Below, one piece after another: positions 2,101-61,908 of a stretch of DNA of 64,000 nucleotides. The DNA is from Candidatus Pacearchaeota archaeon (GTDB lineage Archaea > Nanobdellota > Nanobdellia > Pacearchaeales > GW2011-AR1), in the NCBI GenBank assembly GCA_017609915.1, contig JAFCDA010000001.1:5033-69032 (forward strand), given 5' to 3'. Under the pieces are notes generated by a model, which ran no database searches, was not told the origin of the DNA, and saw nothing but the letters and a program-made list of their open reading frames with translations. Both the position numbers and the translations under genes were made by a program. Position 1 is the first letter of the stretch; each line of letters opens with the position of its first letter.

Positions 2101-2156
2101 TTTTTTATTTTATTCTTTTTCTATTATCTCTATAAACATTTAAGTTTAATTATCTA

Positions 2157-2237
2157 GCAAGGGCACATCCCTTCCGTAACCCTATCTTTAAGCTTATCTT
2201 CTCAGCTGAGCATCTCTCCCTATGCTTATAAGATATT
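2157..2237. repeat. ~80-nt intergenic element, copy 1 (second copy 34171..34244)
   Basis: gcaagggcacatcccttccgtaaccc...tcttctcagctgag...ctatgcttataagatatt. About 88% identical, with small indels, to 34171..34244. Contains the hairpin AAGGG-CACAT-CCCTT. Confidence 0.8.
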
Positions 2238-2289
2238 GATATTCTTTTTATCTCTTAAATGAGATTCCTTTCTATTTAAAAATTATTGT

Positions 2290-5254: not shown

Positions 5255-5344
5255 ACAAAAATACTACAAGCTCATTATATAAAGTTTTTTATACTCCCAA
5301 CCCTTTAAAAAAGGCTTGACCTAAATTTTAAAATCATAGAAAAT

Positions 5345-8037: not shown

Positions 8038-8146
8038 TTTATATTGTTTATCTGGAATTTGATAAGCTCAATTTAGTTTTGAAGATGATTTGTTTAACTT
8101 AATCTTATCTTCTCCAAAGCTCTAGGTTTAATAAGATATTGATATT

Positions 8147-13150: not shown

Positions 13151-13197
13151 AATTTACTTAAGAATATAGAGATTTTAAAACTTTCTTAATTAAGCAT

Positions 13198-13211
13198 ATC
13201 TTTAAAAATAT
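13198..13211 (+). promoter_or_regulatory. putative TATA box for small acidic ORF
   Basis: atctttaaaaatat lies ~20-30 nt upstream of the ATG at 13230, consistent with a leaderless or short-leader archaeal mRNA. Confidence 0.35.
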
Positions 13212-13229
13212 GAGGTAGATTTAATTAAT

Positions 13230-13346
13230 ATGACTGAAGAAAACAATAATGAAGATAATAAAGATAAAGAAGAAGATAATGCATATACTCCTGAAGAAGA
13301 ATTAGAAGTAAAAAAAAGACTTGAGAGCTTGGGGTATTTGGATTAA
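13230..13346 (+). CDS. 38-aa highly acidic peptide ending RLESLGYLD (not in ORF track)
   Basis: MTEENNNEDNKDKEEDNAYTPEEELEVKKRLESLGYLD. The tail is conserved at protein level with the two neighbours, but the DNA has diverged. Confidence 0.35.
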   Translation: MTEENNNEDNKDKEEDNAYTPEEELEVKKRLESLGYLD

Positions 13347-13442
13347 ATATAACTTTCTTAGTGTCTCTAATCATAATTAGGACTTAAACTTCTCTTCTTT
13401 AAAGCATTATATTTTATAATATATAGATTAGAATTTTGGTTT

Positions 13443-15155: not shown

Positions 15156-15241
15156 TTTATTTAGTTTAATTTAGAATATTTAAGATTTATTAATGTATAA
15201 TCATACCTTATTGCCCCCATATTTCTAAGAATTTTACTGGT

Positions 15242-15728
15242 TCACTTTATAACTCTTAATTCAACATGAACTTGAGATACTAAACCACCAAAAAACAAAG
15301 CTAATTTTTCTCTAAGTGGTTTGAATATAAATTTTCCAATTCTTGTGGGTATTAATTCTAATTTGATTATCTCAAACTTTTTTTATTTTTTTATTTTATT
15401 TGGTCCTTCTACAAATACTTTAAATGTCGCATCTGAAAAATAATGTAAATGTTCCATATCATTAAAAGCTCCTTTACTATTATAATAGGGCACTTCAATA
15501 ATAATTACTGCATTTTGCTTACATATTCGATATAACTCATTTAATACTTTTTTGGTTTTAAATAAGATAATATTTGATTCATTAAAACATAATCATAACA
15601 ATCTGCATTTAAGGGATAAGGAAATTTATTAAAATCAAAGCTCTTGAAGATTTTTGGATTTTTTGTATATCTACATTATCCCATCCTTCTCTTATATCTG
15701 GCCCACATCCAAAATTAAGTTTTCTCAT
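15242..15728 (-). pseudogene. class I SAM-dependent methyltransferase pseudogene (frame broken 3 times)
   Basis: Minus strand reads MRKLNFGCGPDIREGWDNVDI / FDFNKFPYPLNADCYDYVLMNQILSYLK / VLNELYRICKQNAVIIIEVPYY... / FEIIKLELIPTR...VIK* in shifting frames. All breaks fall in poly-A runs. No ORF of 60 aa or more in the track here. Confidence 0.6.
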
Positions 15729-15813
15729 GATTATAATCACTTCTTATTTTAAAAATTTTTTAGAGTAAAAAGAACGCAATAATGTTTAAAAAGCTTCTTA
15801 TAAAATAAAGTAT

Positions 15814-18911: not shown

Positions 18912-19023
18912 AAGGTGAATAAACTAATATCTTATAAGTATAGGAAAGATATTCAATGAGGAGCTTAAACTTATCAGATAATAAAACTTAAGATTTATAG
19001 AGATATTTAAAATAAAATATAAA

Positions 19024-24774: not shown

Positions 24775-24938
24775 ATAAAAAATAATCTTAAAATATTAAA
24801 AGGTAACTAAATAATATCCATATCTTGATAAGAATAACGAGTGAGAAAAAGATTTGTAAAGCTTTAAAATGAGTAGAGATTCAAGATGGTTTGCATAACT
24901 TAAAGATATAATAAGATTCCAGTAAATAATATAAAAAA

Positions 24939-29136: not shown

Positions 29137-29223
29137 ATTTTTTGGTATTTATAAAAATATGATGAGATAAAGAAGAGGGATTAAGTTATTCAGATAATAT
29201 CTCTTGATTGAGCTTATAAAATA

Positions 29224-30840
29224 TTAAAATGTTTTTTTTATAGATTTTTTAACTAATTTTAAATCCTTAAATAATTTTTTTATAACTGATTTTATCACCA
29301 TTAAATCCTCTTTATCAAGAGAATGTGAAATAATTATTAAAGACAAGTAAAGTAAAATAAACAAAGAGGTTAAAATTATAATTGAAAAAACATTAATTGT
29401 AACTTTTTCTATTAAATAAAATAAAACTCCTGTTGGGATTATTGAAACTAAGATTATAGTAAACATCTTTCTTTTTAAAGGTATAAATGAAAGATGTTTT
29501 TTTGTTTGTATAATCAAAAGGGTATTTAAAAAGATTATAGATAAAACAGTTGCAAGAGAAGCTCCGATTAAACCATTTGAATTATCTAAAGAAAACAAAA
29601 CAGGTATTGGAACTAATATTGAATTTAATATTAAATTAACAATTGCAGATATAGATATATTAAACAAGATTAACTTAGATTTACCTAACATTGAAATAAG
29701 ATTTGTTGAAATCATAAATAATGCAGAAATAAATGTTCCAATTAGCAAAAATTTAAGGGCAATTTGTGCAATAACATATTGACTTCCAAAAAGGATATTT
29801 AATGATGCTCCTGAAAAAAAGAATATTAAAATAAAAATTGGAAGAATTGCCATAAATATCCATTTATTTACTTGTTTACTAAGCTGTTTGATTAAAGCAT
29901 TATTTTTTGCAGAATATTGTCTTGTTATAAGTGGAAAAAATAACTGCATAAATAATTGTGGGACAATCATTATAAGCATTGCAATTGGCACAGCTGCATT
30001 ATAAAACCCAACTTCTACTGCAGATTTATAATAACCTAAAGAAATAGTATCAATCCAATGAAAAATAATAGATATAGCTGCAAAAAATAATAATGGCCAG
30101 GAATATTGAAAAAACTCTTTACTAATCTTTGAATAATCTTTTTTCTCATAAGAACCAAAGATTTTATTTATTTTATTTTTACAAACTAAATAAGCAGCAA
30201 ATAATGTAAGAATTGAACCAGATATGTAAGACCAAACAACAGCATTTCCTCCTGAATTAAAACCTATGAAAATAAGAATTATAAGCACACCTACACGGAC
30301 TAAATTTTGAAAAATATTAAAAATAAAAGAATACCATCCAATCTTTTCAAACCCTCTAAGCACTGTGAGAAATATACTTGCAAGCATTACAGCAAGAATT
30401 GAAAAACTCATTATTTTTAGAAAAATAGAAAGGCTTGGATTATGAAATATTTGTATTGAAATAAAATCTGATAAACCAATTAAAACTATTGAAGCAATTA
30501 TCCCAGAGATTAAATAAAATCTCAGTGTTTTTCTAAATAAATACCTCATCTCATTAATCTTTTTTCTCTCTCTTAATAATGGGACAAATCTTAATAATCC
30601 ATCTACAAAACCAAAAGAAGCAATTGTGATAAAAAGAGGGATTACAGATAAAACAAGAGAAAATAATCCATAAATTTCTGGGCCATAATAACGAGCAATA
30701 ATTATCCTATAAGCATACATTAAAACTTTTGATAAAAAAAGTCCAATAAAAACAATAAAAGAAGATTTCATAATTAGTTTAAGAGATTTATTAAGCTGAT
30801 TTTCTCTTGTAATATGTTCCTGATTTTTCAAATGTTCCAT
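29224..30840 (-). CDS. oligosaccharide/polysaccharide flippase (MOP superfamily, Wzx-like)
   Basis: 538 aa with ~14 TM helices by eye. N-terminal pattern typical of polysaccharide biosynthesis (Wzx) proteins. Closes the glycan island. Confidence 0.7.
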   Translation of the reverse strand: MEHLKNQEHITRENQLNKSLKLIMKSSFIVFIGLFLSKVLMYAYRIIIARYYGPEIYGLFSLVLSVIPLFITIASFGFVDGLLRFVPLLRERKKINEMRYLFRKTLRFYLISGIIASIVLIGLSDFISIQIFHNPSLSIFLKIMSFSILAVMLASIFLTVLRGFEKIGWYSFIFNIFQNLVRVGVLIILIFIGFNSGGNAVVWSYISGSILTLFAAYLVCKNKINKIFGSYEKKDYSKISKEFFQYSWPLLFFAAISIIFHWIDTISLGYYKSAVEVGFYNAAVPIAMLIMIVPQLFMQLFFPLITRQYSAKNNALIKQLSKQVNKWIFMAILPIFILIFFFSGASLNILFGSQYVIAQIALKFLLIGTFISALFMISTNLISMLGKSKLILFNISISAIVNLILNSILVPIPVLFSLDNSNGLIGASLATVLSIIFLNTLLIIQTKKHLSFIPLKRKMFTIILVSIIPTGVLFYLIEKVTINVFSIIILTSLFILLYLSLIIISHSLDKEDLMVIKSVIKKLFKDLKLVKKSIKKTF

Positions 30841-30904: not shown

Positions 30905-31333
30905 TCAAAAATATTTGTTTGGATATTTTTCTCTTAATACTAAATGTCTTATTAAACTAAATTCCCTAACATAAAGCATATTTTTATGCCCAAAGTATAA
31001 TAAATCTAATATTGAATGAAATATCATTCCAATTAAAGCAAAATAAAATCCTCTCCAGAAAAAAGATAAAATAAAAACAAGAATTAAAAATTCTATTGTG
31101 TGGAAAACCATCATTATTGGTTTTTTTAAATTTTTACTTAGTTTTTCAAGATAATTATAAGAATTTTTTAAATCCCAATCTTTTTTTCTTGCTACATACC
31201 ATAAGTAATGGTCAAAGTCTATTAAAATAGAACTTAAAAAAACTAAAAGAGTTTGGAAGATAGTTAATGAAAATAACCAATATAATAATGCTGAAAATAT
31301 TGCTCCTAATATGATGTGGTGTTTTGGCAGCAT
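30905..31333 (-). CDS. small membrane protein (possibly DUF457/YdjM-like metal-dependent hydrolase)
   Basis: MLPKHHIILGAIF...LIDFDHYLWY. 4 TM helices. Confidence 0.35.
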   Translation of the reverse strand: MLPKHHIILGAIFSALLYWLFSLTIFQTLLVFLSSILIDFDHYLWYVARKKDWDLKNSYNYLEKLSKNLKKPIMMVFHTIEFLILVFILSFFWRGFYFALIGMIFHSILDLLYFGHKNMLYVREFSLIRHLVLREKYPNKYF

Positions 31334-31556
31334 TTTTACCTCTTTTTTATGTTTCTTTTTTTATCTCTATAATCTTAGGTTTAATTATCTGAGTTTTTCT
31401 TAATCCCAGTAGAACAAATCTCCCTATACTTATAAATTATTTGTATAAAATATTTATATTCTTATTGTATTTTTAAGCTATGCTCTTCTTTTCTTTAAAT
31501 CTTAATCTCATCATAACATCTTTTCTTATGCTTATAAGATATTTGTTTTTAATAGA

Positions 31557-33062
31557 TTAATCTCTCAAAATCTTTTTTACCATTTCTGAGAATGCAGGAC
31601 GAGTAATAAATACTCCTGCTGAGATTCCAATTATTGTTGTGATTGCAAATCCTTTTAATAAACCTGCTCCTGCCCACATAAGAGGAAGCAAAGCAAATAA
31701 TGTAGTTACATATGTTCCTAAAATAATAAACAAAGCTCTTTTAATTCTCTGTTTTAATGAAAGAATATGACTCATTTGAGATTCATCTAAGATAATTATT
31801 TGTGAATCAACCCCTGTTCCAATTGCTGCTATAATTCCTGCAATTGCTGGTAAATCTAAATTTCTTTTAAATAATGCTGAAATTCCTAAAATTATTAAAA
31901 CTTCACACAAACTTGTTAATAAAACTGCTAAAGATAATTTTATTTTTCTATATCTTAAAAAAATCATTAAACCTACTGCAAGAATTGCAGCAGCTCCTGC
32001 AATTAAAATTGTGTTAATAAATTTTTTCCCAAGTAATGGAGAAATTGTATCTAATTTTTCTATTTGTAATTTAAAAGGTAGAGAGCCTGTTTTTAGAACT
32101 GTTTGTAATCTATTCATCTCAATTTTAGTATTTTCTATTGCTTCATTCCTTGTTTCTCCAGACCCAGATCCGCTAATTTGAATCTGAGTTGTTGTACTCC
32201 CCCTCAATCCTTCAGAAATAGATAAAGAACTAAATAATTCATCATCTAAATATAAATCTATTTTTTTATCTAATGATTGTGGATTTTCAGGGTCTAATCC
32301 CAACCCTTTTGTTATCTTTGCAAATCTTTCTGCAGCTTCTGGGCTTAAGGTTATTCCAAATCTAAAGTTACAAAATTCTTCTTCTTGAGTGGTTCTACAA
32401 TCATAAATTCCTGCCTGTTCTCCTGTTTTTGCAACATAAGTTATATCCCTATTCCCACCAATAAATACAGTTTTGTTTCCGATTTTTGCTTCAAATTTTC
32501 CTTGTTGAGAAATTAAATTTCCAAGTTCTTCACGGGTTGAACCAGCTATTTCAATTAACATATAATTATTTCCAGAAAGGTCTGTAACAGGCCTAATTAT
32601 AATATCTTTTAGTCCATAAACATTTAATCTCTGGCTTGTTATGTCTATAAGATCTTGCAACTCCTGAACATTTAATTTTTTATCCTTAGCTACAACTAAT
32701 GCTCTTGATCCACCTGATAAATCTAATCCTGTTTTGATTCTTGTTTTATCTATATTTGCAACACTTATTTGTGGAGCTTTATTTGTAAATAAAATAAATT
32801 CTCCTTTTTTAGTTGTTATTGTTATTTTTTGATTTTCACTTAAAAAAACTTTTGAATTAATTATTTCTTTATAATCTTCAAAACTTAATATTTTTTGCCC
32901 ATCAATATGGGTAATTATCTGTCCTTGCCTTAATCCTTGTTCATAAGCTGTTGAATTTTGTTCTATTGAAATAATTTCAACTCCTTTTTCAAAATTTAAA
33001 GGAACCATAGCTAATATAGAACCTAAAACTACAAATATTAATAACCAAATTTTCCAGTTCAT
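31557..33062 (-). CDS. secD: protein-export membrane protein SecD with N-terminal PDZ-like segment
   Basis: GLDLSGGSRALV motif and a C-terminal 5-6 TM bundle. Directly downstream of secF. Confidence 0.75.
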   Translation of the reverse strand: MNWKIWLLIFVVLGSILAMVPLNFEKGVEIISIEQNSTAYEQGLRQGQIITHIDGQKILSFEDYKEIINSKVFLSENQKITITTKKGEFILFTNKAPQISVANIDKTRIKTGLDLSGGSRALVVAKDKKLNVQELQDLIDITSQRLNVYGLKDIIIRPVTDLSGNNYMLIEIAGSTREELGNLISQQGKFEAKIGNKTVFIGGNRDITYVAKTGEQAGIYDCRTTQEEEFCNFRFGITLSPEAAERFAKITKGLGLDPENPQSLDKKIDLYLDDELFSSLSISEGLRGSTTTQIQISGSGSGETRNEAIENTKIEMNRLQTVLKTGSLPFKLQIEKLDTISPLLGKKFINTILIAGAAAILAVGLMIFLRYRKIKLSLAVLLTSLCEVLIILGISALFKRNLDLPAIAGIIAAIGTGVDSQIIILDESQMSHILSLKQRIKRALFIILGTYVTTLFALLPLMWAGAGLLKGFAITTIIGISAGVFITRPAFSEMVKKILRD

Positions 33063-33168
33063 TTTTTGTTTTTCATTTTTATTTAATTTTTAATTATCTT
33101 ATATCCTTAATCTTCTCATCTGAATCTCGTTCTATGCTTATAAGATATTAATTATTTTCCTCCATAAT

Positions 33169-34122: not shown

Positions 34123-34170
34123 ATTTTGTTTTATCTGGTATCTTAATATCTTAAGCTGAATTGATGAGTG

Positions 34171-34244
34171 GCAAGGGTACATCCCTTCCGTAACCCTTTT
34201 CTTAATCTTCTCATCTGAGTATCTCTCTATGCTTATAAAATATT
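34171..34244. repeat. ~80-nt intergenic element, copy 2 (first copy 2157..2237)
   Basis: gcaagggtacatcccttccgtaaccc...tcttctcatctgag...ctatgcttataaaatatt. Same orientation relative to the downstream (minus-strand) gene as copy 1. Confidence 0.8.
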
Positions 34245-34272
34245 AGTTTTTTATTTGATTTTTATTATTAAA

Positions 34273-37982: not shown

Positions 37983-38015
37983 AATATCAGATTAAAAACT
38001 AATATCTTGATTGAG

Positions 38016-38027
38016 CTTATAAAATAT
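38016..38027 (+). promoter_or_regulatory. putative TATA-like box (CTTATAAAATAT)
   Basis: Lies 23-34 nt upstream of the ATG at 38050. Same box recurs upstream of 45200 and 46416. Confidence 0.4.
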
Positions 38028-38049
38028 AGGTTAATAGAATAACACAAAA

Positions 38050-38736
38050 ATGAAAAATAATGATTTAAAGAGATTTAGATATGAAAGAAAATTTGTTATA
38101 TCTGAATTAAATTCTTATGAAATAGAACATTTAATCAGACATAATCCTGCAATTTTTTCTGAAATATTTTATGAAAGAATGGTTAATAATATTTATTTAG
38201 ATTCTATAGATTTGAAAAATTATAATGAAAATTTAATTGGAATTTCTAATAGAATAAAAATTAGAATTAGATGGTATGGGGGTGTTTTTGGAATTATTAA
38301 AAAGCCTGTATTAGAATTAAAAGTAAAAAATAATGAATTAGGGAGAAAACTATCTTTTCCATTAAAGGGATTTATTTTAGATAAAAAATTTTCCTTAAAT
38401 TTATTACAAAAAGTTTTCTCAAAATCAAATCTTCCAAAGTGGTTAGTTGAAAGATTAAAATTATATTCTCCAAGTCTTCTTAATTCTTATAAGAGAAAAT
38501 ATTTTATTTCTGCTAATAAAAAATATAGGATTACTTTAGATAAAGATCAAATTTTTTATAAAATAAAAAATAGAAATAATTTCTTTAAGGAAAAAATTAC
38601 AAATAAAAAAATCTGTATTTTAGAAATAAAATATGCTTTAGAAGATTATAAAAGAGCAGCCAATATAACTAGATATTTTCCATTTAGATTAATAGCAAAC
38701 TCCAAATATGTTAATGGAATGGATTTGTTTGGTTAG
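38050..38736 (+). CDS. VTC-domain (polyphosphate polymerase / triphosphate-tunnel-like) protein
   Basis: RFRYERKFVI, NNIYLDS, RIKIRIRWYG, VLELKVKNN. Alternating basic beta-strand pattern of VTC/CYTH-like tunnel proteins. Confidence 0.6.
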   Translation: MKNNDLKRFRYERKFVISELNSYEIEHLIRHNPAIFSEIFYERMVNNIYLDSIDLKNYNENLIGISNRIKIRIRWYGGVFGIIKKPVLELKVKNNELGRKLSFPLKGFILDKKFSLNLLQKVFSKSNLPKWLVERLKLYSPSLLNSYKRKYFISANKKYRITLDKDQIFYKIKNRNNFFKEKITNKKICILEIKYALEDYKRAANITRYFPFRLIANSKYVNGMDLFG

Positions 38737-39625: not shown

Positions 39626-39709
39626 TGCAGAGGATAGGATTCGAACCTATGAAGGCACTAAGCCACAAGATCTTGAGTCTTGCCCGTTTGACCACTCCGG
39701 AACCTCTGC
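39626..39709 (-). tRNA. tRNA-Leu (anticodon CAA), long variable arm
   Basis: Minus strand GCAGAGG TT CCGG AGTGGTCAAA CGGG CAAGA CTCAAGA TCTTG TGGCTTAGTGCCTTC ATAGG TTCGAAT CCTAT CCTCTGC A. Confidence 0.9.
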
Positions 39710-39751
39710 TTAAATATTATGAAAAAGCCAATAATTGTTTATATAAAAACC

Positions 39752-39761
39752 TTTATAAAGA
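39752..39761 (+). promoter_or_regulatory. putative TATA box for 5S rRNA
   Basis: ctttataaag is centred ~25 nt upstream of the inferred 5S 5' end (39781). Confidence 0.5.
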
Positions 39762-39780
39762 GTTATTTTTAAGTTATATT

Positions 39781-39894
39781 GGAGACGACCATAATAATCT
39801 GGTCACACCTGATCCGATTTCCAACTCAGAAGTTAAGCAGATTATGTTTAAGGTATTAGTTTCAGAGATGAAGTGAAGCCATAAAGTTGTCTTC
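39781..39894 (+). rRNA. 5S ribosomal RNA (stand-alone)
   Basis: GGAGACGACCATA...CACACCTGATCCGATTTCCAACTCAGAAGTTAAGC... matches conserved 5S loop/helix signatures. The 5' GGAGACGAC pairs with the 3' GTTGTCTTC. Confidence 0.8.
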
Positions 39895-39964
39895 TTTATA
39901 TTCCAAACAACTTTATATAAAAAGCCAGTATCTTATAAAATATAAATAAACATAAAAATAAAAA

Positions 39965-40162
39965 ATGATAATACCTCTTCGTTGCATATCTTGTGGAAAG
40001 CCAATTGGTCATTTGTGGCAGGATTTTAAAGAAAGAACTGAAAAAGGAGAAGATTCTAAAAAAGTCTTAGATGAATTAGGTTTAGAAAGATATTGCTGCA
40101 GAGCTATGTTTTTAGGGCAAGTTGATATATTAGAGTTAGTTAATAAGTTTAAGAAGTTCTGA
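39965..40162 (+). CDS. rpoN: DNA-directed RNA polymerase subunit N (Rpo10)
   Basis: MIIPLRCISCGKPIGHLWQDF...LGLERYCCRAMFLGQVD. Canonical Rpo10/RpoN zinc bundle. Confidence 0.9.
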   Translation: MIIPLRCISCGKPIGHLWQDFKERTEKGEDSKKVLDELGLERYCCRAMFLGQVDILELVNKFKKF

Positions 40163-40332
40163 TATTTCATTATATTAATAGCCTATAAGCTTAATTAAGA
40201 GATTATCTGAGTAGCTTAAAAAACTCCTCTTCTAAACTTCAAATTTTATAGAGATATTAATATATTGTATTAACTCCTTAGAAGTAACAAACAAGAAACA
40301 TTTATAAGGGGGTTTTTCTTGGGGAAATTAAG

Positions 40333-44833: not shown

Positions 44834-45031
44834 ATGAAGCGGTGTATTTATTGTAAATGTGGTTTATCTGAAGAATCTGTTATTGATTTTTGTGAAAGAT
44901 GTGGACATGGTGCTTTTGGAGAAAAAATGTTTAAGGTGATTGTTCAAAACATGAAAGACGCCAAGGAAAGAGGGGACTTACATCAATAAGAAACCTTTTT
45001 AAAGCTCTTATTTTTAAGGATTTTATATTAA
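44834..45031 (+). CDS. small zinc-ribbon protein (not in ORF track; 3' end uncertain)
   Basis: MKRCIYCKCGLSEESVIDFCERCGHGAFGEKMFKVI... contains two CxxC pairs. After the T-run at 44940-44942, another frame encodes a more protein-like tail (VQNMKDAKERGDLHQ*). Confidence 0.35.
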
Positions 45032-45071: not shown

Positions 45072-45164
45072 CCTAGAAAACCATAAAAATTTTCTTAGGT
45101 CTTATAAAACTTTAAGTTATGCCCCATTAAGATTTAACTACTCAGATAATCAAAATCTCATGAG

Positions 45165-45176
45165 CTTATAAGATAT
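45165..45176 (+). promoter_or_regulatory. putative TATA-like box (CTTATAAGATAT) for L21e operon
   Basis: Lies 24-35 nt upstream of the ATG at 45200. Part of the recurring palindromic box. Confidence 0.45.
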
Positions 45177-45199
45177 AGATAAACAAATTAAAACAAAAA

Positions 45200-46310: not shown

Positions 46311-46388
46311 AATGTGTTATCAGAACCAAATATCTAAAAAAATAAAGATTTAAAAACCCAATTATTGATTATTTAATAAGCTCAATGC

Positions 46389-46400
46389 CTTATAAAATAT
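46389..46400 (+). promoter_or_regulatory. putative TATA-like box (CTTATAAAATAT) for S13 operon
   Basis: Lies 16-27 nt upstream of the ATG at 46416. Confidence 0.4.
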
Positions 46401-46415
46401 TATATAGATAAAAAA

Positions 46416-46958
46416 ATGCAAGAACAAACACAAGAAATCAAAGAAAATAACATTTCTTCTTTAGAAAAGAAGACAAGATTGAACAAAGAAGAAACTAAGG
46501 AAGAATACTTTTCTATAATTAGGATTCTACAAACAGATATTCCTGGGAATAAAAAAACTTTGGTTGGTTTAACATATATTAAAGGAGTTTCTTGGGCTAT
46601 TTCTAATGCTTTATGTAAAATTCTTAATTTAGATCCTGAAAAAAAAATTCTAGATTTAGATAAAAAAGAAATAAAAATAATAGAGGATTTTTTAAAAAAT
46701 CCTCAAAACTTGCCTGAATTTTTAAAAAATAGAAGAAATGAATTTGAAACAGGAGAAGATTCTCATTTAGTTGGAGCTGAACTTGATATGAAAAAAGAGT
46801 TTGATATTAGAAGATTAAAAAAAATAAGATCTTACAGGGGATTAAGACATGCTTTTGGACATCCTACAAGAGGGCAAAGAACAAGAAGCCATTTTAGGGC
46901 TAAAGGAAAGAAAAAAGCAATTGGAGTTAAAACAAAGAAAGTAGGAAAGAAAGGATAA
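46416..46958 (+). CDS. rps13: 30S ribosomal protein S13 (uS13) with N-terminal extension
   Basis: IIRILQTDIPGNKK...IRSYRGLRHAFGHPTRGQRTRSHFR. Confidence 0.9.
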   Translation: MQEQTQEIKENNISSLEKKTRLNKEETKEEYFSIIRILQTDIPGNKKTLVGLTYIKGVSWAISNALCKILNLDPEKKILDLDKKEIKIIEDFLKNPQNLPEFLKNRRNEFETGEDSHLVGAELDMKKEFDIRRLKKIRSYRGLRHAFGHPTRGQRTRSHFRAKGKKKAIGVKTKKVGKKG

Positions 46959-47020
46959 AAACAACCCCTTAAAAAAGGCTTGACCCAAACCAATAAAAAT
47001 AAACCATCAAAATATTAAAA

Positions 47021-50056: not shown

Positions 50057-50193
50057 AAATAAATAATAATATAAACCCATATCTTATAAGGCCGTCTTTT
50101 AGAAAAAGATGGTGACAAAAATTATAGAGATGTTATGAGAAGATTAAGTAATTCATCTTCAAAACTCAAGATTAAGAGATATCAAATAAAAAA

Positions 50194-50607: not shown

Positions 50608-50774
50608 AAGTATATTTTATTTTTTAGTATCTTATTGTATTTTTAAGATATGCTAAACTGTTCTTTATCTCTCATCTTCAAAACTTAATATTTTACAAGA
50701 TATGGAGAAAATCCATAACATTTATTAATTCTTAATTATAATCATTAATATAAAAAGAGGTAAAGTTTTGTAAA

Positions 50775-51431
50775 ATGCTATTTGAATCAGTTGTAAGTTT
50801 TTTTGAAGGATTAATAAATTCAGTTCCTACAGAATATCGAATATTAGTGAGTCTTTTTATTTACACCTTTTTTATTGCAATATATGCTATCTTTATTTGG
50901 AAATTTTATAAATTTCTTGCAAGTAGAGATATTATTGAACTAAATCTAAAACAATATAATCATTCAAAATATCCTGGATTAGAGAAATTTTTTGCAGTTC
51001 TTCTTTATACTGTTGAATATATGATTATTTTGCCTTTTTTAGTATTATTTTGGTTTGCAATCTTTTCTATGTTTTTATTAATCTTATCTGAATCACAAAG
51101 TGCTCAACAAATACTTTTAATTTCTGCAGCAATTATTGCCTCAACAAGAATAAGTGCTTATATTAGTGAAGATTTATCAAAAGATATTGCAAAAATTCTT
51201 CCATTTACTGTTTTAGCAATGTTTATTTTAGGTAATCAATTTTTTAATTTAGAAACTATCTTCTTAAAAATCTATCAAATTCCTTCATTGTTTAATAATG
51301 TTGTAATGTTTATTATATTTATTTTTATAACAGAGTTTGTTCTTAGAGGAATTCATTCTATTATTCAATTAATTTATTCTTCTTCAGGAAGCTCTGGAAC
51401 TGGTGGAGGAACTTCAGTTAAGGAAGGTTGA
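50775..51431 (+). CDS. polytopic membrane protein, function unknown
   Basis: 218 aa, ~6 TM helices, Gly/Ser-rich tail SSSGSSGTGGGTS. Confidence 0.45.
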   Translation: MLFESVVSFFEGLINSVPTEYRILVSLFIYTFFIAIYAIFIWKFYKFLASRDIIELNLKQYNHSKYPGLEKFFAVLLYTVEYMIILPFLVLFWFAIFSMFLLILSESQSAQQILLISAAIIASTRISAYISEDLSKDIAKILPFTVLAMFILGNQFFNLETIFLKIYQIPSLFNNVVMFIIFIFITEFVLRGIHSIIQLIYSSSGSSGTGGGTSVKEG

Positions 51432-59671: not shown

Positions 59672-59790
59672 AAGTTCTTTAAGGTTTTTTATATTATAAA
59701 CCTATTTAATCTAACTAGTATCTTATAAAATATAGATAAAAATAAGTTTAAAAACAAAAACTTAATAAATATTACTTCCTTTTATATGAA

Positions 59791-61113: not shown

Positions 61114-61386
61114 ATGGCTAAAAAAAGAGAAAGATTAAAGGTAATAAAAGATATTCTTAATTCAATTAAAGATAATAGAAATATTAAACCTACAAGATTA
61201 TTATATGCTTCTAATCTGTCTCCTCAAATGTTTAAAGATTATATTAATGAACTAATCTCTAAAGGATTTATTAGTTTAGATATTGATAAAAAAGATAAAA
61301 AAACTTTTTCATTGACTTCAAAAGGTTATGAGTTTTTAGAAGAATATAAAGTAATTGAAAACTTTGTTGAAAACTTTGGGTTATAA
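61114..61386 (+). CDS. winged-helix DNA-binding protein (HTH_45-like)
   Basis: RLKVIKDILNSIKDN..IKPTRLLYASNLSPQMFKDYINELISKGFI is typical of small archaeal wHTH regulators. Confidence 0.6.
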   Translation: MAKKRERLKVIKDILNSIKDNRNIKPTRLLYASNLSPQMFKDYINELISKGFISLDIDKKDKKTFSLTSKGYEFLEEYKVIENFVENFGL

Positions 61387-61521: not shown

Positions 61522-61623
61522 AAGCCTTATTTGAGTTTTACAGCAGTACCATATGCTAACATCTCTTCTCGATGCACATAAGCCTTATTTGAGTTTTACA
61601 GCAGTACCATATGCTAACATCTC
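61522..61623. repeat. 44-nt direct repeat (period 58 nt) duplicating the 3' end of the YbjQ-like gene
   Basis: aagccttatttgagttttacagcagtaccatatgctaacatctc occurs at 61522..61565 and 61580..61623. Confidence 0.9.
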
Positions 61624-61908
61624 GGCTGCACCTTGCATTATCATTGATGTTGCAAATCTTATAGTGATAATTGCATCTGCCTTAAGTTCAATAGCTTGAT
61701 TAACCATTCTATTAAATGCTTCTTCTCTTGCATGAGTAGTCATATCTGTATAGCTTTTTATTTCTCCACCAACAATGTTTTTGAATCCTGCTGCAATATC
61801 TCTTCCAACATGTCGTGCTCTTATTGTGTTTCCTTTTACAACCCCTAAAATCTCTACTACTTTTTTTCCAGGTATTTCAGATGTTGTACTGGTTATTATT
61901 TCTACCAT
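61585..61908 (-). CDS. YbjQ/UPF0145 family protein
   Basis: TTSEIPGKKVVEILGVVKGNTIRARHVGRDIAAGFKNIVGGEI...ADAIITIRF. Confidence 0.75.
   Translation of the reverse strand: MVEIITSTTSEIPGKKVVEILGVVKGNTIRARHVGRDIAAGFKNIVGGEIKSYTDMTTHAREEAFNRMVNQAIELKADAIITIRFATSMIMQGAAEMLAYGTAVKLK

Follow-up and report, generated by a model that had tools for sequence, protein, structure and literature searches.

The 223-nt spacer at positions 31334-31556 of a 64,000-nt stretch of the Candidatus Pacearchaeota archaeon assembly GCA_017609915.1 (contig JAFCDA010000001.1; the whole stretch is referred to below as the window) separates secD (31557-33062, minus strand) from the gene of a conserved membrane protein of 142 amino acids (30905-31333, minus strand; the 142-aa gene). 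We found that this spacer carries two tandem copies of a module of about 45 nt, here called M, which recurs upstream of unrelated genes in the window and in its close relatives. We favour the view, with a probability of roughly 55%, that M constitutes a lineage-specific family of propagated archaeal promoter modules, in which the reversed copy nearest to the gene serves as the working core promoter. Among the possibilities raised by an earlier, sequence-only reading of this DNA, a dispersed repeat family that donates promoters fits best, as copies share 80–87% identity over 50–81 nt and are gained and lost at orthologous sites. The window has a G+C content of 25–30% and belongs to an AT-rich, Pacearchaeota-like (DPANN) archaeon. 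It encodes the ribosomal proteins L21e, S13, and S9 and the RNA polymerase subunit RpoN, all of them archaeal, together with SecD/SecF and numerous cell-surface glycosylation enzymes (Pfam scans), four tRNAs, and one stand-alone 5S rRNA.

The sequence-only reading had described an ordered cassette of four parts. In an alignment of the window copies with five contigs from a metagenome motif scan and with loci found through SecF/SecD homologs, this cassette reduces to the single module M, used in two orientations. M consists of a near-palindromic box resembling a TFB-recognition element (BRE) and TATA element, (A)ATATCTTATAAG or ...AAATAT, followed by 15–17 nt rich in ATAGAGAGAT, often CATAGAGAGATAYNC, and by the GA-rich element NTGAG(A/G)AG(A/C)TTAAG (NTGAGRAGATTAAG). 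The spacing from TATAAG to (A/C/T)TGAG is 17 nt in nearly all copies, including the five metagenome contigs, and 16–19 nt in three. Two variants exist, alpha ending in CAGATGAGAAGATTAAG and beta ending in TTATCTGAGTAGCTTAA, and the copy at 18923 is intermediate between them. The reversed M reads CTCATCT.../...CAGATAAT, then N14-16, then CTTATAARATAT, and CATCTTCAAAAC, which also recurs, is GTTTTGAAGATG in reverse complement. Composite cassettes are ordered as forward M, a variable spacer of 12–51 nt, reversed (often degenerate) M, and ATG.

The smaller motifs can be understood from this anatomy. The word CAGATAAT, previously taken for an independent conserved factor-binding site, is instead part of the reversed M, being the reverse complement of ATTATCTG in the beta variant (the ATTATCTGAG variant of the module). 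Its recurrence as a bare 8-mer is weak (17 matches against 4.6 expected, a mere 5 of the 17 intergenic), as it is mostly a word of coding sequences, and the copy listed at 2149 has one mismatch. It becomes significant only in register with a TATA-like box, where the pattern CAGATWA-N9-22-TTATARA gives four matches against 0.35 expected. We regard TTATAGAGATA as a variant of the box, because it stands in for CTTATAAGATAT at the orthologous rpoN promoter. At this one position, three genomes have CTTATAAAATAT (window), CTTATAAGATAT (L016), and TTATAGAGATAT (L018), and all three boxes are followed by (A/T)(A/G)ATAAACATAAAA. The listed positions of TTATAGAGATA are exact at 18995, 40246, and, on the minus strand, 2125 and 31362, while the one at 50122 has a mismatch. 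The 9-mer TATAGAGAT has six matches against 1.3 expected.

The 12-mer box CTTATAARATAT has 13 exact matches on both strands, as compared to 0.19 expected from dinucleotide shuffles, and none of 100 shuffles reached 13 copies, so that the recurrence withstands the composition-matched check. The matches are located at 2225, 18927 (minus strand), 29213, 31531, 33137, 34232, 38016, 39932, 45165, 46389, 49863, 50079 (minus strand), and 59722. The sequence-only reading had also counted 13 positions, of which 11 are exact; 8129 and 31429 are variants with two mismatches, and 39932 and 49863 had been overlooked. The 16-nt "full palindrome" that it had proposed, ATATCTTATAAGATAT, has no exact occurrence in the window; ATATCTTATAAAATAT is present in the relatives L016 and L020. 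Twelve of the 13 boxes are intergenic, though intergenic DNA makes up 10.3% of the window (binomial P = 1.7e-11). The box followed by TGRKRAG at fixed spacing occurs four times, against 0.30 expected.

The family is confined to a narrow lineage. The relatives identified through SecD are metagenome-assembled genomes labelled Pacearchaeota, Woesearchaeota, or Nanoarchaeota. We found no box and no module match in 172 kb of outgroup loci, which are of similar G+C and come from relatives at 66–81% protein identity. In the closer clade, defined by SecF at least 80% identical, the box density is 0.13 per kb in unbiased loci, as compared to 0.20 per kb in the window. We consider the outgroup comparison a stronger control than shuffling. 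Each genome has a box variant common to its loci, for example TATAAGCATAG in the lineage of the window and TATAAAATATAA in that of L016, and the details of the box agree among copies within one genome, not among orthologous sites. These genome-specific details indicate that the copies spread recently, underwent gene conversion, or co-evolved with a binding protein.

Copies upstream of unrelated genes are homologous to each other well beyond the box. All-against-all BLASTN of the spacers revealed 80–87% identity over 50–81 nt, variable spacers included. The regions 2157-2237 and 34171-34244, upstream of a PMT_2 glycosyltransferase and of secF, share 83% identity over 81 nt (E = 1e-18), and 18922-18991 (FkbM methyltransferase) matches the reverse complement of 33083-33153 (secD) at 81% over 72 nt. 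Similarly, 2101-2155 and 31343-31390, belonging to the PMT_2 glycosyltransferase and the 142-aa gene, are 82% identical over 55 nt, and 33106-33157 and 34201-34252, belonging to secD and secF, are 87% identical over 52 nt. A GC-rich mini-hairpin, GGGTTACGGAAGGGATGTRCCCTTGC, with no obvious function, is common to the PMT_2 and secF cassettes only (repeat D9). The cassette of the window's radical-SAM gene shares 30 identical nucleotides with a cassette upstream of a prefoldin gene in the metagenome contig L013, a non-orthologous locus. Homology that runs through seemingly functionless sequence points to copy-and-paste rather than convergent evolution of binding sites. M would thus have been copied into many spacers within this lineage, and the copying may have proceeded by duplication, recombination, or transposition.

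The number of copies at orthologous sites ranges from 0 to 2 among relatives. Between tRNA-Gly and secF, for example, L020 has no spacer promoter (the ATG follows the tRNA after 13 nt), L018 has a partial cassette without box, the window and L019 (a 3.1-kb contig 99% identical to the window) have one cassette, and L016 has two in tandem. In the outgroups L002-L008, secF and secD abut, with a Shine–Dalgarno (SD) sequence of the GGAG/GAGG type inside secF, whereas all clade members have a 106–195-nt spacer with a cassette and no SD. L016 and L018 are close relatives, yet their loops between GATGAG and CTCATC at this site measure 10 and 47 nt, respectively. The gene rpl21e overlaps the next gene in the window, is separated from it by 30 nt in L018, and by 108 nt holding a cassette of about 75 nt in L016. 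Modules split operons in this way, secF from secD and L21e from the next gene. The rps13-rps4 spacer measures 10 nt in L016 and L018; in the window it measures 62 nt and is taken up by another repeated block.

Positions relative to start codons are consistent with promoter function of the reversed copy. Archaeal core promoters contain an AT-rich TATA element of about 8 bp, centred some 26–27 nt upstream of the transcription start. In 19 of the 52 genes preceded by a spacer, a TATA-like YTTWWAWR starts 28–30 nt before the ATG, with a mode of 29 nt. SD-like motifs are found in 3 of these 52 genes, as compared to 8 of the 26 genes that follow a short gap or an overlap. Because such motifs are rare there, we treated the spacer-bearing genes as leaderless and the position of the ATG as a proxy for the transcription start; they would be expressed as leaderless or very short-leader mRNAs. 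At rpl21e, rpoN, rps13, a VTC-domain gene, and a radical-SAM gene, the proximal box precedes the ATG by 27–35 nt. For the genes starting at 38050, 45200, and 46416, whose boxes the sequence-only reading had placed close to the ATG, a count from the box's first base indeed gives distances to the ATG of 34, 35, and 27 nt, respectively. Its suggestion of leaderless or short-leader mRNAs agrees with the leaders of 0–6 nt that distances of 27–35 nt imply, with the TATA-like peak at 28–30 nt, and with the rarity of SD motifs. In solitary reversed modules, CTTATAAG, which fits the TATA-like consensus, is the sole TATA-like element at a suitable distance. The genes of stable RNAs have comparable elements: a perfect TATA-like palindrome, CTTTATAAAG, lies 30 nt before the 5′ end of the 5S rRNA, and ATCTTTAAAAA lies 31 nt upstream of tRNA-Gly.

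Judged from sequence, the most likely role of the reversed copies is that of core promoters from which leaderless or short-leader mRNAs are made, with their boxes, 27–35 nt before the start codon, as putative sites for TBP and TFB. The forward copy, often 45–100 nt further upstream, would make an imperfect inverted pair with the reversed one around a hypervariable spacer, and is most simply read as a second promoter-like module. Its predicted start would be the G or A inside GAGAAG, 29–30 nt from the box and 4–5 nt after an often conserved ATG. The distal forward copy could be a second promoter giving a leader of 60–110 nt, an antisense promoter directed into the 3′ end of the upstream gene, or one half of a hairpin. 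The bidirectional initiation that the sequence-only reading had derived from a palindromic TATA box would likewise be conjectural.

The two same-strand module matches in the spacer of the 142-aa gene (nhmmer; 31545-31501 and 31444-31399) bear out the tandem arrangement that had been noticed there. Unit 1 is a forward M at 31501-31545 on the minus strand (CAAATATCTTATAAG-CATAAGAAAAGATGTT-ATGATGAGATTAAG; nhmmer E = 1.6e-7), 82% identical over 38–49 nt to the copies at 2200-2237 and 18921-18968. Its spacer (31441-31500, minus strand; repeat D10) contains a promoter-like block (GAAGAGCATAGCTTAAAAATACAATAAGA; GAGCATAGCTTAAAAATACAATAAGA). This is the 25-nt block that the sequence-only reading had seen shared between 31460-31484 and 50630-50654, and the match proved to be longer, extending over 38 nt at 87% (E = 1e-8; 50630-50667) or 50 nt at 80%. 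The block also matches the reverse complement of 24893-24916, and its relatives occur in L016, L018, L020, and L013. Unit 2 (31399-31444, minus strand; ACAAATAATTTATAAG-TATAGGGAGAT...CTGGGATTAAG; nhmmer E = 5e-4) is the most diverged forward M. The two units are 74% identical to each other, and unit 1 has a higher identity, up to 81%, with copies at other sites. A recent local duplication is therefore argued against, since their mutual identity is no higher than that to distant copies.

Downstream of the tandem units, 31357-31398 (minus strand) can be read, by sequence comparison and pattern match, as the proximal promoter of the 142-aa gene in the form of a reversed module, CTCAGATAAT-N13-TTATAGAGATA. 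It is 82% identical over 50–55 nt to the equivalent parts at 2101-2155 and 18974-19023 and fits the pattern of CAGATWA in register with a TATA element. The remaining 31334-31356 (minus strand) forms a short leader rich in A; the GAGGT that it contains (31338-31342), 4 nt ahead of the ATG at 31333, is one of the three SD-like motifs among the 52 spacer-bearing genes. The 142-aa gene would accordingly follow two tandem forward modules, a proximal TTATAGAGATA promoter, and an SD-bearing leader of about 10 nt. Its homologs at 68–81% identity (L021-L023) have simple upstream promoters and no module.

Several points weigh against a family of promoter modules. All assignments of transcription starts and promoters come from position and consensus, and the gene calls were our own, made from a list of open reading frames (ORFs). 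The proximal boxes lie 27–38 nt from the ATG and not at the sharp mode of 29 nt, which implies leaders of 0–9 nt or a shifted TATA register, and a position weight matrix derived from 13 canonical promoters gave no usable call of the direction of initiation, which the BRE sets, even for boxes of known direction. The positional evidence concerns the reversed copy, and the forward (distal) copy is without a demonstrable role. Orphan copies without a downstream gene (29181-29224 and possibly 50608-50707) are more typical of selfish repeats. In each of the 14 composites folded, the two boxes pair (z = -0.4 to -3.6), which could reflect a role as a hairpin or as an element of the REP (repetitive extragenic palindromic) or MITE (miniature inverted-repeat transposable element) type. 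The loci L010 and L012-L015 were retrieved by the motif itself and carry an ascertainment bias.

The folds and orphans bring in a different unit: the inverted pair of forward M, loop, and reversed M, about 100–140 bp long, as a non-autonomous, REP/MITE-like palindromic mobile element. Any effect it has would come from a DNA cruciform or from an RNA hairpin formed in read-through transcripts, with roles in stabilising mRNA 3′ ends, in processing, or in insulation between co-directional genes, and its TATA-like ends would supply promoters only incidentally, as in Correia elements. We consider this unlikely but deserving of attention. The pairing of distal with proximal box is universal among the folded composites, with every z negative, and the GATGAG...CTCATC arms enclose a 12–51-nt loop that is hypervariable even between close relatives. 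Both in the window and in relatives, the genes flanking each forward copy are co-directional, and presence and copy number vary between close relatives. On the other hand, the folds are partly trivial, since any two palindromic boxes pair, and the alignment of cassettes with their own reverse complement is not significant (z ≤ 2.7); nor is the co-directional bias (8 of 8 spacers against a background of 74%, P ~0.09). Insertion polymorphisms are present with blurred boundaries, and neither target-site duplications nor clean ends were identified. Pfam scans of about 50 of the roughly 80 ORFs in the window gave no transposase or integrase, and the many solitary reversed modules sit at exact promoter distance. 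The module pattern is likewise without a match in viral contigs, which also led us to discard a viral origin. In a bolder and somewhat less probable variant, M would be the terminal repeat of an archaeal mobile element, active but non-autonomous, with outward TATA/BRE promoters. Its spread in one Pacearchaeota lineage would be breaking ancestral SD-coupled operons (secF-secD, rpl13-rps9, rps13-rps4, and rpl21e-rpoF) into separately promoted leaderless genes, and mobile promoters would then be the mechanism converting a reduced DPANN genome to leaderless expression.

By analogy with known archaeal operators, the near-palindromic 16-mer might instead bind a dimeric regulator of the winged helix-turn-helix (wHTH), ribbon-helix-helix (RHH), or TrmB-like type and control a regulon. 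Such a regulator would repress where the box overlaps the TATA position and would activate, or do nothing, where it is distal, as for the TGM (Thermococcales glycolytic motif) and its regulator Tgr. The dyad symmetry of the box, its two position classes relative to start codons, the box variants particular to each genome (which would fit co-evolution with a trans factor), and a wHTH protein encoded at 61114-61386 are consistent with this. We nevertheless find it improbable: solitary proximal copies have no other TATA-like element at promoter distance, so that the box must itself be the TATA element, and the downstream genes (glycosyltransferase, radical SAM, methyltransferase, SecD/SecF, and subunits of ribosome and RNA polymerase) have no common function. 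Moreover, the homology runs through the spacers, unlike convergent operator evolution, and the distance from distal box to proximal promoter varies between 45 and 100 nt. Less plausible still is a transcribed RNA element, whether a cis-regulatory 5′ leader, a small non-coding RNA such as a C/D-box small RNA (sRNA), or a leaderless mini-ORF (ATG AGA AGA TTA AG...). About 12 of 16 copies have an ATG at 25 nt from the C of the box, a perfect C-box-like AUGAUGA occurs in one copy, and GATGAG and CTCATC are complementary. Against this, no Rfam match was obtained at the gathering threshold or at E < 0.1, the leaders fold no better than shuffles (z = -1.7 to +1.0, with one copy at a minimum free energy of 0), the arms are invariant and hence show no covariation, and the mini-ORF's ATG lies 4–5 nt upstream of the expected start site. 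C/D-box sRNAs were rejected on either strand, as box-like matches are sporadic and most copies have AGAUGAG without a D box or Rfam match. A conserved mini-ORF (MRRL...) was rejected as well, as its 3–23 codons show no conserved length or peptide and CTG or TTG replaces ATG in four copies.

Further composite cassettes were found in the window. The cassette upstream of secF (34123-34247, minus strand; BLASTN and nhmmer) has a forward M followed by 41 nt of spacer, which include a small GC hairpin, and by CTCATC...CTTAAGATATTAAGATA; its fold has z = -2.4, and the copy in L019 is identical except for 1 nt. The longest secF ORF starts with ATG 34182, within this GC hairpin, whereas homologs (L001 and P0001-P0010) support ATG 34122. 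The cassette between secF and secD (33063-33152, minus strand; BLASTN and nhmmer) has forward M, the proximal TATA-like ATATAAGA, and a mini upstream ORF (uORF), ATGAAAAACAAAAAATGA (MKNKK*; 33076-33059, minus strand). This uORF ends in a stop that overlaps the start codon of secD (ATGA), begins with an ATG about 28 nt after ATATAAGA, and is kept in L016, L018, and L020 (as MKTKK*) and not in L001. This suggests a leaderless uORF with termination-reinitiation replacing the SD of the outgroups. The cassette upstream of the PMT_2 glycosyltransferase (2101-2240, minus strand; BLASTN, D9, and Pfam) has the module and GC-hairpin spacer in common with that of secF. The one upstream of the FkbM-type methyltransferase (18923-19023, plus strand) was detected by nhmmer (E = 3e-8) and BLASTN. 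Upstream of a B12/radical-SAM gene (8038-8143, minus strand; nhmmer and sequence), the ATG is preceded at 29 nt by the proximal box CTTATCAAATTC. The cassette between rpl13 and rps9 (50079-50193, plus strand; fold z = -2.2) has a 32-nt insertion that separates the box from the rest of the module.

Other copies are solitary or lack an evident gene. Solitary reversed modules lie upstream of rpl21e, as its putative promoter (45133-45199, plus strand; box 35 nt before ATG 45200), and upstream of the VTC-domain gene (37988-38049, plus strand; box 34 nt before ATG 38050), both assigned by position and BLASTN; the latter is 96% identical over 25 nt to 29199-29223. A box lies 33 nt before the rpoN ATG at 39965 (39925-39964, plus strand; position and ortholog comparison), and another lies 27 nt before the rps13 ATG at 46416 (46370-46415, plus strand; position). 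Downstream of rpoN, 40175-40258 (plus strand; BLASTN) holds a forward beta-variant M (CCTATAAG...ATTATCTGAGTAGCTTAA) plus TTTTATAGAGATA, with 84% identity over 38 nt to the reverse complement of 29181-29218 and 95% over 20 nt to that of 45133-45151. The orphan reversed M at 29181-29224 (plus strand; BLASTN and pattern match) lies in a convergent spacer with no gene downstream either way. At 50608-50707 (minus strand; BLASTN, and weakly by nhmmer, E = 0.4), a module plus the block lies on the strand opposite to both flanking genes; it may be an orphan or, alternatively, serve the gene at 50775 as a reversed copy. The box at 59714-59735 (plus strand; position) is located in a divergent spacer, off promoter distance for both genes, each of which has its own TATA-like motif near -30.

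The highest module density that we saw is in L013 (1-1400, minus strand), with four to five modules in 1.3 kb and a cassette for every small gene, in the order tRNA-Pro, cassette, rpl37ae, cassette, rpoP, cassette, prefoldin-like gene, and two tandem reversed modules. A second repeated intergenic block, CAACCC(C/T)TTAAAAAAGGCTTGACC, occurs at 5298-5325 and 46962-46989 (plus strand; 93% identity over 28 nt). One copy is upstream of queC and the other fills the rps13-rps4 spacer, neither at the usual promoter distance of 29 nt; a related block sits inside M-cassettes of L014 and L016.

Some features of the window were observed apart from the module. The stand-alone 5S rRNA gene is divergent from tRNA-Leu(CAA), with a 71-nt spacer between them (39626-39895). 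The 414-nt spacer upstream of rpl21e contains an unlisted 51-aa ORF (44834-44989, plus strand) with two CxxC pairs (MKRCIYCKCG...CERCGH...), probably the gene of a small zinc-ribbon protein; its ATG is preceded, at about 32 nt, by a TATA-like ATATTTAAAC. A short acidic ORF (MTEENNNEDNKDKEEDNAYTPEEELEVKKRLESLGYLD*) at 13240-13356 (plus strand), in the 292-nt spacer 13151-13442, is below 60 aa and hence off the ORF list. The 658-nt spacer 15156-15813 coincides with a strand switch and with the minimum of the cumulative GC skew; its minus strand reads like the N-terminus of a class I S-adenosylmethionine methyltransferase (MRKLNFGCGPDIREGWDNVD...) without an intact ORF of at least 60 aa, and is probably a pseudogene. 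A perfect 44-nt direct repeat (61522-61565 and 61580-61623, with 58-nt spacing) overlaps the 3′ end of a YbjQ-like gene (61585-61908, minus strand) and is either a local duplication or an assembly artefact. A scan for bacterial promoters and terminators gave nothing informative, as expected in an archaeon.

To our knowledge, there is almost no experimental information on the transcription signals of DPANN archaea. The locus yields a testable promoter consensus, a palindromic TATA element of the CTT(T)ATAAG type about 29–35 nt before start codons without SD, together with a set of its natural variants. It is also a clear example of promoter-bearing DNA that is copied, inverted, tandem-duplicated, and lost among relatives with 80–99% protein identity. 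The GGAG-type SD at secD in the outgroups, as compared to the cassette and leaderless-style start in the clade, suggests that promoter propagation accompanies operon fragmentation when translation turns leaderless. The modules also matter for annotation, since at least one start codon, that of secF, was wrongly placed on their account. As far as the literature searched shows, neither the M family, nor its modular use in inverted and tandem form, nor its presence in a DPANN chromosome seems to have been described, while the kind of element is known.

Among known systems, operators such as the TGM of Tgr/TrmBL1 resemble the M box as palindromic motifs at varied positions relative to BRE/TATA in many promoters. 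The TGM, however, is a short operator without surrounding homology that defines a coherent regulon, whereas the M box is at the TATA position, in homologous surroundings of 50–80 nt, and upstream of unrelated genes; the combination of a dyad without flanking homology and related genes is not seen for M. C/D-box sRNAs are recognised by RUGAUGA and CUGA boxes near their ends, with a terminal stem or kink-turn, and most module copies lack the boxes; the leaders lack the stable, covarying structure of a structured cis-regulatory RNA or riboswitch. The Correia element is, by analogy, the closest structural analogue. Correia elements (Correia repeat enclosed elements, CREE) of Neisseria have defined 26-bp terminal inverted repeats (TIRs), TA target duplication, and RNase III processing. 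They and the promoter-bearing MITEs and enterobacterial repetitive intergenic consensus sequences (ERICs) are intergenic, about 100–150 bp long, with inverted-repeat ends containing promoter elements; they are polymorphic between strains and can split or re-wire transcription units. The composite M-cassettes resemble them in these respects, with inverted pairs at the level of motifs. Correia elements differ in their bacterial host, and their TIRs, TA duplication, and RNase III processing could not be shown for M, nor did we find a target-site duplication or precise empty and filled sites of the MITE/Correia kind.

The closest archaeal precedent is found in the halovirus HF2, in which AT-rich intergenic repeats of 58 and 29 bp upstream of genes were experimentally shown to be promoters (Russ, Pfeiffer & Dyall-Smith 2021, PMC8707807). 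Like M, these are repeated AT-rich intergenic sequences at promoter positions in an archaeal replicon. They belong to a haloarchaeal virus and keep stable positions among relatives, whereas M is unrelated in sequence, resides in a cellular chromosome with high turnover, and has a putative promoter role. Promoter propagation, as described for putative mobile promoters (PMPs), is the closest concept. PMPs are recognised as more than 50 nt at 80% identity or higher, within about 150 nt upstream of coding sequences that lack homology to each other (Matus-Garcia et al. 2012, PMC3488235). The M-cassettes fall within this definition: they align at 83% over 81 nt, 81% over 72 nt, and 82% over 55 nt, and they precede the genes of PMT_2, SecF, FkbM, SecD, the 142-aa membrane protein, and the radical-SAM protein, of which only SecD and SecF are paralogous. 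PMPs are an operational class, mostly of bacteria with sigma-70 promoters, whereas M has an archaeal TATA-like palindrome as its core, occurs in either orientation and in inverted or tandem pairs, and belongs to a reduced DPANN host with leaderless expression. Both are homologous non-coding stretches upstream of non-homologous genes, lineage-specific and variable between relatives (PMC3488235).

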